A stretch of DNA of 62,946 nucleotides, the filler included, from Anaerolineae bacterium (lineage in GTDB: Bacteria; Chloroflexota; Anaerolineae; B4-G1; DUEL01), in NCBI GenBank assembly GCA_041082215.1. It is 6 parts of 6 records of this genome, joined end to end, with 100 filler letters (N's around TTAATTAATTAA, not from the genome) between each part and the next. Parts side by side here need not be neighbours in the genome. Positions count along the whole stretch, not along the records: positions 53,460 to 57,952 come from JBDOIF010000119.1; 5 more parts are not named here. One strand, 5' to 3'. The stretch's first letter is position 1. Every line of letters begins with the position of its first letter. The notes under the pieces are model-generated. The model ran no database searches. It was not told the DNA's origin and saw nothing but the letters and a program-made list of their open reading frames with translations. Shown piece by piece: positions 53,460-59,006 of this stretch. A program made the position numbers and the translations under genes.

Positions 53460-53789
53460 ATCTTCACCCGAACGTACGATTTCATCACCTGGCTTCTGCC
53501 GGTGACCAACCACTTCCCCCGCGCGCATCGCTTCACCTTCACCCGCCGGCTGCTGGATGCCGCCTTCGATCTGCTGGAGCGGCTGGAGGAGGCCAATCAC
53601 CGCCAGGGGAAGCTTCGTCTCGCGCTGCTGAAGGAGGCGGACATCTATCTGGATCGGGTGCGGCTATACCTGCGAATGGCCACACGCTGGGAGTGGCTCT
53701 CTGCCGGTCAGTACCGTCATGCTGCGGAGATGGTGACGGAGATCGGTCGCCTTCTCGGAGGCTGGCAGAAGGTCACCCATGAAGAATAG
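53460..53789 (+). CDS. avd: DGR accessory variability determinant Avd (5' truncated)
   Basis: IFTRTYDFITWLLPVTNHFPRAHRF...LYLRMA..WEWLSAGQY......EIGRLLGGWQK, directly upstream of the TR. Confidence 0.9.
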   Translation: MFTRTYDFITWLLPVTNHFPRAHRFTFTRRLLDAAFDLLERLEEANHRQGKLRLALLKEADIYLDRVRLYLRMATRWEWLSAGQYRHAAEMVTEIGRLLGGWQKVTHEE

Positions 53790-53868
53790 GAGGCAACTCG
53801 CGGCCCAACCATCGGGCCGCCGTTGCGGGGGCGGGCCGGCAACTGCCGCCGGGCTGTGGAAGGGTGGG

Positions 53869-53990
53869 CCCGCGCGGTGCGCGGCGGCTCCTTCAACAAC
53901 AATCGCCGCAACGTGCGCTGCGCCTACCGCAACAGGGACAACCCCGACAACTTCAACAGGAATCAGGGGTTTCGTCCGGTGGCGGCCACG
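53869..53990 (+). repeat. DGR template repeat (TR)
   Basis: 122-nt ungapped match to the VR; nine AAC/AAT triplets in the target reading frame. Confidence 0.95.
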
Positions 53991-54182
53991 CTTTTCCGGT
54001 ATGCCGGAACTGCCCGGCGGGGAGGGCAACAACCAGAGTTGCCCCTGCCTTCCGGGCCGAGGCGAGAAAAACGGCGCGGCCCGCCCCTGGCCGGCGGGCC
54101 CTTCCCCCGGGATGGGATCCGCCGGGCGAATACGGAAGCGCCCTGCCCCCTGGGTTCATCTCTGGGGCTGGGCACGCCGCAG

Positions 54183-54215
54183 AGGTGCCAGGCGCCTCGA
54201 AGGCGCCTGGCACCT
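54183..54215. repeat. Perfect 14-bp hairpin upstream of RT
   Basis: AGGTGCCAGGCGCC-TCGAA-GGCGCCTGGCACCT. Confidence 0.8.
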
Positions 54216-54226
54216 GGCCCCAGCAA

Positions 54227-55279
54227 ATGTATACTCAACTCTGTTCGTGGGATAATCTGCTCCTGTCCTATCGCCGCGCCAGCAAGGGAAAGCGTGGCCA
54301 TCCATCCGTGGCCGCCTTCGAGTACCGCCTGGAGACTAATCTGCTCCAACTCCAACAGGAGCTGGCGACGAAGCGGTATCAGCCAGGCCCTTACAACTCC
54401 TTCTACATCCACGATCCCAAGCGCCGCCTCATCTCCGCTGCCCCCTTTCGGGATCGCGTGGTCCATCACGCCCTCTGTAACGTCATCGAACCTCTCTTCG
54501 AGCACCGCTTCATCTTCGATTCCTATGCCAACCGGGTGGGTAAGGGCACCCACCGGGCACTCGATCGGTGCCAGCAGTTTGCCCGCCGCTTCCGTTACGT
54601 GCTCCAATGTGATGTGCGCCAGTTTTTCCCCGCCATTGACCACGCCATCCTCAGGGAAACCCTGGGCCGCGTCATCGCTGACTCCAACGTGATGTGGCTG
54701 GTGGGCCGCATTCTGGAGAGCGGCGTTGGTGTGCTGAGCGAGGAGTACGAGATGGTCTACTTCCCCGGCGACGATCTCTTCGCCGCCCTCCGCCCCCGCG
54801 GCCTGCCCATCGGCAACCTGACCAGCCAGTTCTGGGCCAACTGCTACCTGGACCCCTTCGACCACTTCGTGAAGCGGGAACTGCGGTGCAAGGGGTATCT
54901 GCGATATGTAGACGATTTCCTGCTCTTCGCCGATGACAAGGCAACACTGTGGGCCTGGCAGGAGGCGGTGATGGCCCGGCTGGCCCAATTGCGACTCACG
55001 CTCCACGAAGAACGGGCACACCCTCGTCCGGTAACCGAGGGCATCCCCTTCCTGGGCTTCGTGGTCTATCCCACCCACCGGCGGTTAAAGCGGCGGAAGG
55101 GGATCGCCTACCGGCGGAGGCTAAAAGGGCTGCTGCGAGCATTCGCAGCGGGCCAGGTCTCGCTAGAACAGGTGGACGCTTCCGTTCAGGGATGGATCAA
55201 CCACATCCGGTACGGTGACACCTGGGGGTTGAGGCGGGCAGTATTTAACAGCCTGCCCGTCCATCCCCCTCCGGTATGA
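54227..55279 (+). CDS. DGR reverse transcriptase
   Basis: PKRRLISAAPFRDRVVHHAL, GKGTH, CDVRQFFPAIDH, GLPIGNLTSQFWAN, YLRYVDDF, FLGF; 350 aa with no maturase or endonuclease tail. Confidence 0.95.
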   Translation: MYTQLCSWDNLLLSYRRASKGKRGHPSVAAFEYRLETNLLQLQQELATKRYQPGPYNSFYIHDPKRRLISAAPFRDRVVHHALCNVIEPLFEHRFIFDSYANRVGKGTHRALDRCQQFARRFRYVLQCDVRQFFPAIDHAILRETLGRVIADSNVMWLVGRILESGVGVLSEEYEMVYFPGDDLFAALRPRGLPIGNLTSQFWANCYLDPFDHFVKRELRCKGYLRYVDDFLLFADDKATLWAWQEAVMARLAQLRLTLHEERAHPRPVTEGIPFLGFVVYPTHRRLKRRKGIAYRRRLKGLLRAFAAGQVSLEQVDASVQGWINHIRYGDTWGLRRAVFNSLPVHPPPV

Positions 55280-55325
55280 TCAGACGGCCGGCACCCGCTA
55301 CGACCAGAGGGACCAGAGACCAGAG

Positions 55326-57614
55326 CTATACCGGGGCCGCCACCGGACGAAACCCCAGCCTCCTGAGGAAGACGTCGGGGAAGTCCCCGCCGCGGTAGGC
55401 GCAGCGCACGAAGCGGCGACCGAGGTTGAAGGAGCCGCCGCGCACCGCGCGGGGGGCCGCCCCCTCCAGGCCGTTATCTTCCCTCTCCAGGTAGCCCCCG
55501 TAATCCCCTACCCACCTGGTGGCGCACCACTCCCACACGTTGCCGGCCATATCCGCCGCCCCGTAGGGGCTGTCCCCGTCGGGGGAGTACTGACCCACCG
55601 GGGTCGGGCGGCCAGGGCCGCCCTCGGCGCTGTTGCACCGCCTGGGATCCCATTCATCCCCCCAGGGGTACTTCCGGCCGTATTCGCCCCGCGCCGCCTT
55701 CTCCCATTCCGCCTCGGTGGGTAACCGGATCTGCCATCCCTCGGGCAGGGGCGCAGCGCGCTGCGCCCCTGCGGCCTCCACCGGCTGCCGCAACCGCTCC
55801 GTGAGCCAGCGACAGTAGGCCACTGCCTCGTACCAGGAGATGCCAACCACCGGTTGCAGGGGGTTATCAAACCCCTTATCGCGCCAGTAACGAGGTTCGG
55901 TCCAGCGCTCCTTCTCCTTCGCTGCCCATCCAGCCTCCGTCCAGTATCTGCGCTCCTTGTACCCACCTGCTTCCACGAAACGGCGGAACTCCTGGTTGGT
56001 CACCGGATAGCGGCCGATCCAGTATTCATAGGGAATGTCATAAGTGTGCCGTGGTTTCTCGTTGTCATAAGCGTCCGGGTCGTCGTCCGCGCTGCCCATC
56101 AGGAAGGGGCCGGCCGGGACGCGGACGAACTGGTCCATCACGAACTCGCCAGGGGACTCCGGCTGCCGCTCCAGCAGGCGGGGCGCAACCCGCCTCGGGG
56201 TGGGCTCCTCCACCTCCCCCACCGGCGGGGCGGTGAGGTGGATGTAAAGGTGGAGCTCCTCCGGCCCGATCTCGAATCCCTCCAGCTGGGCCAGCACGCC
56301 CTGCAGCCGCCGGTTCTCGCCGATCATGGCCTTCAGTTGGGGGTCAATGGGAGGTCCTCCCTCGTCGGCTTCCCTCCCCCGTTTTATGAACGCGATCCCC
56401 TCCCGGATGCGCTGGGGCCGCTCCCTCTCCGGCAATTGCTCCAGCCAGGCCCGGAACGTCTCCCCGCCTGCCTCTGTGAGCACCAGCCACAGATGGAAGT
56501 GGTCCCGATTCGCTCTCTCCGCCTGCCCGGAATTGAGCAGGAGCGCCCACTGTAGCTCGGCATAGTTGATAAAGGTCTTGATGCGGCGGGGGTTGGTCTC
56601 CCCCCCCCGGGTCAGCAGCCTGAGGCTTTCCACCAGCGATGGGTTGGCTTCCGCCAGCCGCTGTTCGCCGGCCCGGAGACCGTCCAGGAAGTCAGCCAGG
56701 CTCTGCTCCCCCTCCGGCTGCAGGGGCGGCAGATCGAACCGGACCTGGATGATCTTATCCAGATACCGCTGGCTCTCCCGCCGCAGTCCCTCGAAACTCC
56801 TGTAGTGGGCAGCCACCGCCTCCTCCACCACCTTCCGCGAGGCTCCGATCACGAAGACCGTGCCGGGCCTGTCCATCATCAGTTTGATCGCCTCCAGCAC
56901 CTGGACCGTCTTTTCCGGCAGGCAGCGGTCCAGGTCGTCTATAAAGATGGTCAGCACGCCGCGGCGGTCGTCAATGCATCGGTCGGGTGCATCGTCCCGG
57001 TAGAGCCACCAGCCCACCAGCCGGTCGAAGACCTCCAAGAACTCGTCCAGGAAAGCCAGGTTGGCCCTGAAGCGGGATTCGGCCTCAAAGCGGGTCAGGT
57101 CCAAGTCAATCTTGCCCAGGGAGAAGACCTGGGAGAGGGTACTGAGGACGGCCTCGGGAACCCGGAGTTGCGTTTGCTTGGGATCGGAGAGGGCAGCGTA
57201 GAGTCTGGTGATGGTTCCATCCCGCCGCATCTCCCGGAGCACTTCCTCCACCAGGGCGACGAAGAGAGCCTCCTCCCGGCTGTACTTCCAGGCGTTGAAC
57301 CAGACAGTGCGTACGGGACGGAACTGCTCATCGTCAGGCCACTTCTCCCCTTCTGCGATGAATCCAGGCCGCTTCTTGCGGTCGGTCGTCTGGTCCAGAT
57401 AGGCCCGCATCGCCCGCATCAGCGTCGTCTTGCCCGATCCCCACTCTCCGTGGATGCCGATGGTGAGGGGAGTGCAGGTATGCCTGGCGGCGATGATGCG
57501 GGCGAAGGTGCGGGCGTAGCTGTCAAACTGGAAGTAAGAAGGCTCTTCGGGCCGCAGCGGCTGGTCGTTGAAGATGAGCGGGGTGATCCAGCGCGGTTTG
57601 CTTTTCTCTGCCAT
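55326..57614 (-). CDS. DGR target: KAP-family P-loop NTPase fused to an FGE-sulfatase-type (CLec) domain
   Basis: GEWGSGKT, FNAWKY, FIDDLDRC, YLDKIIQ, NPRRIK; then FLMGS, YPVTN, PVVGISWYEA, RLPTEAEWEKAARG, DMAGNVWEW, VRGGSF...LGFRPV; ATG after GGAGG. Confidence 0.93.
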   Translation of the reverse strand: MAEKSKPRWITPLIFNDQPLRPEEPSYFQFDSYARTFARIIAARHTCTPLTIGIHGEWGSGKTTLMRAMRAYLDQTTDRKKRPGFIAEGEKWPDDEQFRPVRTVWFNAWKYSREEALFVALVEEVLREMRRDGTITRLYAALSDPKQTQLRVPEAVLSTLSQVFSLGKIDLDLTRFEAESRFRANLAFLDEFLEVFDRLVGWWLYRDDAPDRCIDDRRGVLTIFIDDLDRCLPEKTVQVLEAIKLMMDRPGTVFVIGASRKVVEEAVAAHYRSFEGLRRESQRYLDKIIQVRFDLPPLQPEGEQSLADFLDGLRAGEQRLAEANPSLVESLRLLTRGGETNPRRIKTFINYAELQWALLLNSGQAERANRDHFHLWLVLTEAGGETFRAWLEQLPERERPQRIREGIAFIKRGREADEGGPPIDPQLKAMIGENRRLQGVLAQLEGFEIGPEELHLYIHLTAPPVGEVEEPTPRRVAPRLLERQPESPGEFVMDQFVRVPAGPFLMGSADDDPDAYDNEKPRHTYDIPYEYWIGRYPVTNQEFRRFVEAGGYKERRYWTEAGWAAKEKERWTEPRYWRDKGFDNPLQPVVGISWYEAVAYCRWLTERLRQPVEAAGAQRAAPLPEGWQIRLPTEAEWEKAARGEYGRKYPWGDEWDPRRCNSAEGGPGRPTPVGQYSPDGDSPYGAADMAGNVWEWCATRWVGDYGGYLEREDNGLEGAAPRAVRGGSFNLGRRFVRCAYRGGDFPDVFLRRLGFRPVAAPV
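55332..55453 (-). repeat. DGR variable repeat (VR)
   Basis: Last ~40 codons of the target; 19 mismatches to the TR, 18 at TR adenines. Confidence 0.95.
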
Positions 57615-57782
57615 CGAGCCCCCTCCTAAAGTTGTTTCAGGTGGCGGAGCTTGCGCGGTTTCTTCACGTACCGTTTTGAAGTATAATCGTCTCGAAGAAT
57701 CCGCGCAAATCCGCTCATTCGTGTCATCTGGCCCATTCGTGGTATTCGTGATCCGCAAGCGCTTAGTTAGAGGGATGGGAAG

Positions 57783-57952
57783 ATGCCGTTTCTGGAAATC
57801 CGTCGCCTGCACAAATCCTACCCCGACGGCTGGACCCTTTCCGACGTCAGTTTCTCCGTCGAGGAGGGGGAGATCCTCTGCCTCCTGGGCCCCTCCGGCT
57901 GCGGCAAGACGACCCTGCTGCGGCTCATCGCCGGGCTGGAGGTGCCGGACGG
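57783..57952 (+). CDS. ABC transporter ATP-binding protein (3' truncated)
   Basis: [20 protein letters not shown]. Confidence 0.88.
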
Positions 57953-58052: not shown

Positions 58053-58400
58053 GGAGCCAGATACAACATCAAGATCAACACCATCGCCCCCATCGCCGCC
58101 ACCCGCCTCACCCAGGATATCCTCCCACCCGACCTCCACGACCGCCTCACCCCAGACTTCGTCTCCCCACTCGCCCTCTACCTCTGCTCCGAACAGTGCC
58201 CGGTGAGCGGCCGCATCTACCAGGCCGGGGGCGGCGTCTACGGTCGGGCCGCCGTGGTGAGCGGGCCGGGGGTCAGGCTGGGCACCGACAAGCCCCCCAC
58301 CCCCGAGGAGATCGCCGCCCACTGGCAGGAGGTCCTCTCGCTGGAGGGGGCGAAGGAATACGAGAACGCGAATGAGGCGTTGATGAGCATGTTGGAGTGA
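58053..58400 (+). CDS. C-terminus of an SDR oxidoreductase (hydroxyacyl-CoA dehydrogenase-like)
   Basis: GARYNIKINTIAPIAATRLT...PDFVSPLALYLCSE...SGRIYQAGGG. Confidence 0.8.
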   Translation, partial: GARYNIKINTIAPIAATRLTQDILPPDLHDRLTPDFVSPLALYLCSEQCPVSGRIYQAGGGVYGRAAVVSGPGVRLGTDKPPTPEEIAAHWQEVLSLEGAKEYENANEALMSMLE

Positions 58401-58469
58401 AACGTCAAACGTCAAACGTCAAACGTCAAACGTCAAACGTCAAACGTCAAACGTCAAGCGTCAAAGGTC
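58400..58469 (+). repeat. Heptamer array (AAACGTC)x8 plus 2 degenerate units
   Basis: Counted directly from the sequence. Confidence 0.95.
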
Positions 58470-58484
58470 AACGAGGGAGGAGCA

Positions 58485-59006
58485 GTGGATTACGAGGAGT
58501 GGCTGGTGACAGTCCCAGAGGAGATCAGGGCCGATTCTTTATGGAGAGTAACGGCCTACCGTCTGGCCCTGTTTTTGGGTGACCTGGGATGGCACGACAC
58601 AGCGAGGCTGGTCGAGGACCGGCGAATGGTCAGCCTGGCCGATCAGTTGTACCGGGCTTTGGGATCCATCAGCGCCAATCTGGCTGAAGGATACTCACGA
58701 GGGACTGGCAGGGACCGTGCCCGCTTCTACGAATACGCCCTTGGTTCCGACCGAGAAAGTCGGGATTGGTACTTCAAGGCCCGGCACATTCTTGGAGAGA
58801 CCGTGTTCCGGCACCGTCTACAATTGCTCACGCGGCTGATCCAGCTCATTCTGGTTATGATCCCCCAACAACGGGGGCGCTCCCTGCGGGAGCCGCTGGC
58901 CACCTATGGGCCGTGTGCCGACCAGGCAGAAATAGACAAGACTCATAGCGAGCTGGAAACCTCGCTCACCGCCCTACTCCACCATATCCCTCTCCCTGAC
59001 GCCTGA
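58485..59006 (+). CDS. Four-helix-bundle protein (23S rRNA IVS protein / bAvd-like superfamily)
   Basis: DQLYRALGSISANLAEGYSR...RFYEYALGSDRES motif; GGAGGAG RBS. Confidence 0.85.
   Translation: MDYEEWLVTVPEEIRADSLWRVTAYRLALFLGDLGWHDTARLVEDRRMVSLADQLYRALGSISANLAEGYSRGTGRDRARFYEYALGSDRESRDWYFKARHILGETVFRHRLQLLTRLIQLILVMIPQQRGRSLREPLATYGPCADQAEIDKTHSELETSLTALLHHIPLPDA

Follow-up and report, generated by a model that had tools for sequence, protein, structure and literature searches.

The DNA analysed here (the window) is a stretch of 62,946 nucleotides from the genome of an Anaerolineae bacterium, made up of six contigs with N-linkers between them. A diversity-generating retroelement (DGR) with an avd–template repeat (TR)–reverse transcriptase (RT) core is confined to one of them, contig C52 (53460–57952, 4,493 bp; C labels denote contigs of this genome, 174 in all, and L labels denote related loci fetched for comparison). 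It is very probably a chromosomal DGR of the clade-5D type, a putative clade assignment made from target type and relatives. The core and the gene that it diversifies consist of the following parts:

53460..53789, plus strand: avd (accessory variability determinant), 5' end missing at the contig edge; NF033474, PF22296
53869..53990, plus strand: template repeat TR1, whose last ~25 nt (53966–53990) are the initiation of mutagenic homing sequence of the template (IMH*); 24 mutable adenines in 15 codons
53991..54226, plus strand: structured TR–RT spacer, putatively Sp-like, ending in a 15-bp hairpin (54183–54215)
54227..55279, plus strand: DGR reverse transcriptase, 350 aa, intact, with GNLTSQ and YVDD; RVT_1 match
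55280..55331, minus strand: 3' flank of target 1 with its last codon and stop; short heptamer-like repeats, 51 nt absent at ~55303/55304
55332..55453, minus strand: variable repeat (VR) VR1 with its IMH (~55332–55356); 17 of 24 TR adenines changed, plus one non-A change
55326..57614, minus strand: target 1, 762 aa, with a KAP-family P-loop NTPase (30–350), a helical region, a linker and an FGE-type C-type lectin (CLec) domain (494–758) ending in VR1

Every feature required for membership among DGRs is present in this element, and its machinery is intact apart from the unassembled start of avd. The positions of avd, TR, RT and VR in a preliminary description of this DNA were confirmed, as was the truncation of avd by the contig edge. 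Self-BLAST of the window gave one ungapped inverted 122-nt match, 53869–53990 against 55453–55332, with 19 mismatches. Recomputed in this way, the bias reported earlier stands: 18 of the 19 differences between TR1 and VR1 fall at TR adenines (18 of 25 adenines; hypergeometric P = 5.7e-15), and all seven codon changes quoted in that description are present. The sole non-adenine difference is T>G at TR position 95.

The RT motifs GNLTSQ and YVDD, also claimed earlier, were found in translation, and the start position of the gene is the same as in its relatives. The best solved relative of the RT is PDB 8ub7, which we take to be the BPP-1 DGR RT, with 169.8 bits as opposed to at most 73 bits for group II RTs. 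In a quick tree of 67 rows chosen from ~170 (L016 left out), the RT belongs to a 62-row clade that stands apart from group-II-like RTs with an SH-aLRT of 100. Relatives of the RT were detected in 169 stretches of the genome collection and 346 of the metagenome collection, 80 of each being kept. A survey of 163 related RT loci, in which the TR was allowed on both strands, detected TR/VR pairs at 91; it recovers the window's own TR/VR1 pair and passes over L098 and L122, whose pairs have an excess of non-A differences. The identification of the element as a DGR is thereby upheld. The avd product matches NF033474 with 97.8 bits (cut-off 80) and PF22296 with an E value of 3.5e-21. The RNA fold of 53780–54230 has a z-score of -5.2, and the TR–RT spacer resembles the sequence after the second TR of the genome (contig C154), consistent with an Sp-like role. 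A promoter and terminator scan did no better than chance. The exact 22-nt IMH pattern was found in no stretch of the metagenome and viral contigs, and near-identical records possibly lie outside that collection.

The preliminary description left the target unnamed, and overlooked both a second target and a missing hairpin. It did propose a search of the rest of the genome with the TR for remote VRs, and a genome-wide scan with TR1 detected exactly two VRs, VR1 on C52 and one more (VR2) on contig C90. The C90 gene, target 2, encodes a 998-aa NACHT-CLec protein with hydrophobic N-terminal helices that ends in VR2. Between TR1 and VR2 there are 16 differences, 15 of them at adenines (P = 7.8e-12). 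Eleven adenines are changed in both VRs, with the same base at only 5 of these, matching independent draws. One TR thus wrote two VRs by past retrohoming, which substantiates the earlier proposal that the element has been active. Two other FGE-domain genes of the genome (on C111 and C118) are not targets of either TR, having 41–49 non-A mismatches.

Target 1 was assigned a KAP NTPase domain by Pfam, and VR1 lies in frame at the 3' end of this CLec-fold gene. Its structural model has a pLDDT of 81.4, with a low-confidence linker, and gave FGE-fold matches in Foldseek. We detected no transmembrane segment in target 1 (hydropathy maximum 1.0) and no N-terminal effector domain. The CLec domains of the two targets are 58% identical, and the sequences are nearly identical over the 92 nt that precede the TR boundary and over the flank that follows downstream. 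Two further features of target 1 recur in target 2:

55454..55545, minus strand: block of 92 nt upstream of VR1, nearly identical to target 2 and with no TR counterpart; graft or gene conversion between the targets
55745..55772, no strand assigned: perfect palindrome of 28 bp, in frame inside the CLec domain, present in target 2 too

Retrohoming cannot explain the shared upstream block and downstream flank, so the 3' end of one target appears to have been copied to the other. Among relatives, 7 of 21 two-target rows share at least 34 nt upstream, three of the 7 being near-duplicates. The palindrome, presumably REP-like, has a variant in a target gene on C154; five copies within 2 mismatches occur in the genome, three of them inside DGR targets.

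The last A>C change of VR1 (TR position 120) is located past the invariant GC-rich 3' segment and recurs in VR2; it is therefore the fixed IMH*/IMH mismatch, which leaves a mutagenic count of 17 of 24. An IMH and IMH* with a terminal mismatch are accordingly present, identical in both VRs. The count of 18 in 25 adenines given in the preliminary description was thus correct, but one of the 18 is this mismatch, and 'heavily mutated' overstates the case. The load of VR1 (0.71) compares with a family median of 0.59 over 102 unique TR/VR pairs from loci L025–L184, which are related to one another; 11 of these 102 are at or above it, and the binomial P at the family rate is 0.17. VR1 is in the upper range of its family, not exceptional, and heavy mutation as a distinguishing trait was rejected. 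The absence of stops from VR1, previously presented as meaningful, was likewise rejected as a sign of selection: none of the 15 variable codons of TR1 can turn into a stop, so the template by itself keeps the VR open. The peptide space within reach, without stops, amounts to 8.9e13 variants per target. Adenine mutation by BPP-1 in vitro is reported at ~50% (PMC6182149). In the spectrum pooled over the 102 pairs, the first A of AAC is changed in 77% and the second in 50%, with the second becoming C in only 4%. The BPP-1 RT is reported to misincorporate G at 26.8% in the NAC context, which would read as C; the low A-to-C rate at the second A of AAC may reflect a different RT bias or selection at the protein level.

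The two targets appear to flank the DGR core in an operon for thiamine transport, one gene of which borders the element on the right:

57783..57952, plus strand: 5' end of a thiQ-like ABC ATPase gene; right border of the island, continuing on C123

The 3' end of C52 overlaps C123, a chromosomal contig of 117,731 bp, by exactly 147 bases, in agreement with the earlier suggestion that the element is chromosomal. C90 shares an exact 147-base end with C66 (73,972 bp), and the assembly has 53 shared ends of that kind among its 174 contigs. At the end of C66 lie a TPP riboswitch and genes for a binding protein and a permease, and the ABC ATPase of the operon is on C52/C123. Of 13 relatives, 7 have thiP and thiQ within 152 bp of each other and 1 has them at a distance of 831 bp; in the other 5, the fetched locus does not contain both. 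In 11 of 160 loci, from the relatives whose avd is most similar, the hairpin arm at the end of C90 lies 45–89 nt before the avd position at which C52 starts, and locus L106 aligns to the ends of both contigs with a gap of ~45 nt. We are therefore fairly sure that C90 joins C52, in the order thiP, target 2, hairpin, avd, TR and RT, all reading rightwards, then target 1 reading leftwards towards them, then thiQ reading rightwards. The island would thus span ~7 kb of chromosome between thiP and thiQ. Its content is two targets, avd, TR and RT only; no phage gene was found on it and no att-like repeat longer than 8 nt at its borders. Another small inserted gene occupies the thiP–thiQ junction (upstream of thiQ) in L186 and L191, and this may be a site prone to insertion. 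A TATAAT box (57683–57688) and, after it, short degenerate tandem repeats (57700–57760) are located in the interval from target 1 to thiQ, with a similar box before thiQ in L187; thiQ may have its own promoter, separate from the TPP riboswitch, at a box that was not called by the promoter scan. Signals of replication direction conflict (codon-3 skew z of +4.6 for C66 vs -2.3 for C123; windowed skew weak).

Two features of target 1 are peculiar. Target 1 and VR1 are on the strand opposite the TR, a layout seen in none of the 114 related pairs at the 91 of 163 loci with pairs, where VR, TR and RT share one strand. In L098 (7826–9896), a related DGR below the survey filter, the TR and spacer lie downstream of a convergent second target on the strand opposite RT and avd, and one of the VRs is opposite the TR. 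DGR components on different strands were already noted by Wu et al. (PMC5758913), and inverted BPP-1 targets still work (PMC3240598); in Escherichia coli, orientation relative to the replication fork alters rates up to 44-fold (PMC12875486). The convergent layout seen here may already be included in SI Fig. S11 of PMC10907252 or Table S1 of PMC5758913. The other peculiarity concerns the 3' flank. VR2 is followed by a hairpin with a perfect 12-bp stem; the flank of VR1 is the same except for 51 nt, which are missing between short direct repeats. A perfect stem of at least 7 bp within 130 nt is absent in 29 of 72 related VRs. Since a hairpin after the VR has been found in only 34% of DGRs (PMC5758913), it is not required for DGR membership. 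In BPP-1, deletion of the stem-loop impairs retrohoming severely, not completely, and residual activity is reported. Given its opposite orientation and the absence of the hairpin in the assembly, target 1 probably diversifies at a different, lower rate than target 2.

In established DGR systems, the TR RNA is copied by the RT–Avd complex, with errors at adenines, into cDNA that replaces the VR. By analogy, RT–Avd of this bacterium would copy the TR–spacer RNA with errors opposite adenines, and the cDNA would replace the VR from the IMH upstream. Target 1 would have been brought under TR1 by copying of the 3' end of target 2. The tip of the CLec domain could then bind a phage or foreign ligand, switch the fused NTPase and trigger defence through an effector that is not on the island. 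We lean, without great confidence, towards such a role of the CLec tips as ligand sensors that switch fused NTPases, most likely in defence. It is a further, improbable reading that the arrangement makes the DGR two-speed or switchable, with one TR lying between convergent sensor genes and with inverted repeats formed by their shared 3' ends. Fork orientation and unequal hairpins would then give the soluble KAP sensor and the membrane NACHT sensor different mutation rates, and recombination across the repeats could flip avd-TR-RT, move the hairpin between targets and shuffle VR halves. If so, the locus would exemplify in nature the rate-programming that was proposed from reconstitution in E. 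coli (PMC12875486), with a phase switch in addition.

Several observations weigh against parts of this account. Five public runs contain the stretch or some of it, all of them as contigs and with no RNA run among those listed; at 80% identity their matches were dominated by paralogues from other organisms, and no listed piece covers VR1. In run X1, possibly the source sample, the contig nearest VR1 crosses the RT stop into the target-side flank without differences and then stops at 55303 with 10 unfitted letters; the hairpin-less junction is thus not confirmed and, as the contig halts at the very point of the deletion, may be an artefact. The C90–C52 join is unassembled, and the two contigs do not overlap. 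In the 5 of 13 relatives mentioned above, thiQ has no adjacent thiP match, three of them having 1.5 kb of upstream sequence. The island has no effector gene, neither NACHT target matches PADLOC, and the STAND-associated CLec domains are described as experimentally uncharacterised (PMC10907252).

That the loss of the hairpin after VR1 arose in the library by polymerase slippage at short direct repeats, or by assembly of a minority allele, so that both targets are diversified at full rate, is quite possible, if not the explanation we prefer. The 51-nt deletion is indeed flanked by direct repeats, C90 breaks 12 nt past the intact hairpin, and X1 contigs break at other hairpins of the stretch as well as near VR1. 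C52 is, however, one continuous contig over the junction, and the many related VRs and DGRs without a stem make a true absence unremarkable. Target 1 could instead be frozen, VR1 having been copied from an earlier state of target 2 and no longer retrohomed, and would then record old activity at the other gene. This we consider unlikely. The 92-nt upstream block and the identical downstream flank, which cannot derive from the TR, fit such a history, as does the severe effect of hairpin deletion in BPP-1; but activity does persist there without the stem-loop, and VR1 has 1 non-adenine difference from the TR in 97 positions, as opposed to ~4 in 95 nt of the shared upstream block. Small as these numbers are, they suggest that VR1 was refreshed after the copy. 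Flipping of the avd-TR-RT cassette across the ~290-bp inverted repeats, with C90 and C52 perhaps representing different orientations or strains, appears quite improbable. The convergent layout does make inverted repeats of the shared 3' ends (86% over 286 nt), C90 terminates in 12 nt that match the RT-side flank of C52 exactly, the breaks of both contigs are on the avd side of the cassette, and L098 provides a natural example of a TR opposite its RT. Against this, there is no recombinase on the island, hairpin dropout accounts equally well for the break, shared flanks are common in same-strand two-target loci (the 7 of 21 rows above), and no such joint is present among the joints listed for four runs. 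We found no paper on an invertible DGR cassette in a literature search that was weak, being diluted by off-topic results.

As for function, the targets could be signalling or housekeeping receptors, or FGE-like enzymes, and not defence sensors; we regard this as rather doubtful. Their best structural matches are the enzymes EgtB, OvsA and FGE, and the absence of an effector domain or gene, and of PADLOC matches for either NACHT target, favours this explanation. On the other hand, the DGR variable protein TvpA uses the same fold (2y3c, E = 4e-7), the KAP domain is nearest to QatA and PifA models, and the hypervariable residues would fit a binding site better than an active site. A tropism-switching DGR of a phage or plasmid is extremely improbable and largely refuted, as is the RT of a group II intron or retron with repeats next to it by chance. 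The RT does have a weak match to TIGR04416, and DGR-like RTs occur in 158 phage records; this match (137.6 bits) is far under the cut-off of 300, and no intron or retron RNA was found at Rfam thresholds. The best phage RT is 38.5% identical, both flanks are chromosomal, and a search of viral contigs, whose reach is limited to close relatives, detected no relative of the RT.

The element is a DGR of an already described kind, unusual only in its facing targets and in one target without a hairpin. The preliminary description likened it to BPP-1, which holds as the mechanistic prototype; the cellular DGRs of clade 5D resemble it more closely. As described by Dore et al. (2024) from multicellular bacteria, clade 5D has two NTPase-CLec targets, with NACHT and sometimes KAP domains, and basal members in Chloroflexota (PMC10907252). 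Dataset S3 of that paper, in the portion drawn on here, lists 8 Chloroflexota rows, all 5D, one of them of the genus VGOB01; the RTs of VGOB01 contigs in our collection are 73–74% identical to the window RT and fall in the same clade of the quick tree. Like DGRs 3 and 6 of Thiohalocapsa PB-PSB1, the window DGR is chromosomal, in a genome with several DGRs, and has two targets, each with one C-terminal FGE-type CLec domain and a central NTPase (here KAP-CLec and NACHT-CLec on TR1). Unlike those elements, it has targets of different NTPase classes (KAP soluble, NACHT membrane-anchored) that face each other, lacks an adapter or effector gene on the island (such genes are near some 5D loci), and lies inside a thiamine transporter operon. 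With BPP-1 (architecture B1, PMC5758913) it shares the avd-TR-spacer-RT order, adenine-specific changes, an AAC-rich TR and IMH/IMH*, as well as the hairpin after VR2. It differs in being cellular, in having intracellular or membrane NTPase targets and not a tail fibre, and in having two of them, one of which is on the opposite strand and has no hairpin; the two RTs are distant relatives only, as the score of 169.8 bits indicates. The KAP P-loop domain of target 1 resembles QatA of QatABCD and PifA (PADLOC E = 3.6e-29 and 4.7e-23, respectively). The match is partial (119 bits vs a cut-off of 600) and, unlike QatA and PifA, the domain is fused to a DGR-diversified CLec and has no partner genes on the island. 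As a DGR the element is ordinary, with many related RTs and a target type described in 2024. Its value is that of a test case: effects of orientation and stem-loop have so far been shown only with reconstituted BPP-1, and deep reads of this one locus could test them in nature. In addition, the KAP-CLec protein, soluble and without an effector, offers a compact candidate for studying whether DGR-diversified NTPase-CLec proteins are immune sensors.

Some 73 of the 80 RT relatives kept from the genome collection carry Chloroflexota titles. Distribution among kin is patchy: of 31 genomes, 9 have any match, and only 3, this genome not counted, have a close full-length copy. One genome of the same family (L003) has an RT that does not differ from that of L050, whose title is Anaerolineae. 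Further KAP-CLec targets with VRs are present in L038, L056, L126 and L136. The genome studied here encodes two further DGR RTs, which belong to other subclades of the quick tree. One, at C154:94–4858 (L021), is part of a complete RT-avd-TR set followed by a 999-aa membrane NACHT-CLec target; its TR and VR differ at 19 positions, all of them adenines, and the contig breaks off within a hairpin after the VR. The other, at C119:1–1370 (L015), is a third DGR-type RT, 69% identical, with a cut avd and no TR or target assembled. The genome also has a KAP-CLec paralogue at C118:31219–33522 (L024) and an FGE-domain gene at C111:281–970 beside a protein-kinase-like gene. These are either undiversified relatives or targets of the missing TR of the third DGR. 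Elsewhere in the window, the contig preceding C52 has a SAM riboswitch upstream of an archaeal-type methionine adenosyltransferase gene (PF01941; 51880–53328). The contig that follows has heptamer tandem repeats (58398–58470) and then a gene for a four-helix-bundle protein (23S rRNA IVP-like, 58485–59006), unrelated to the DGR.

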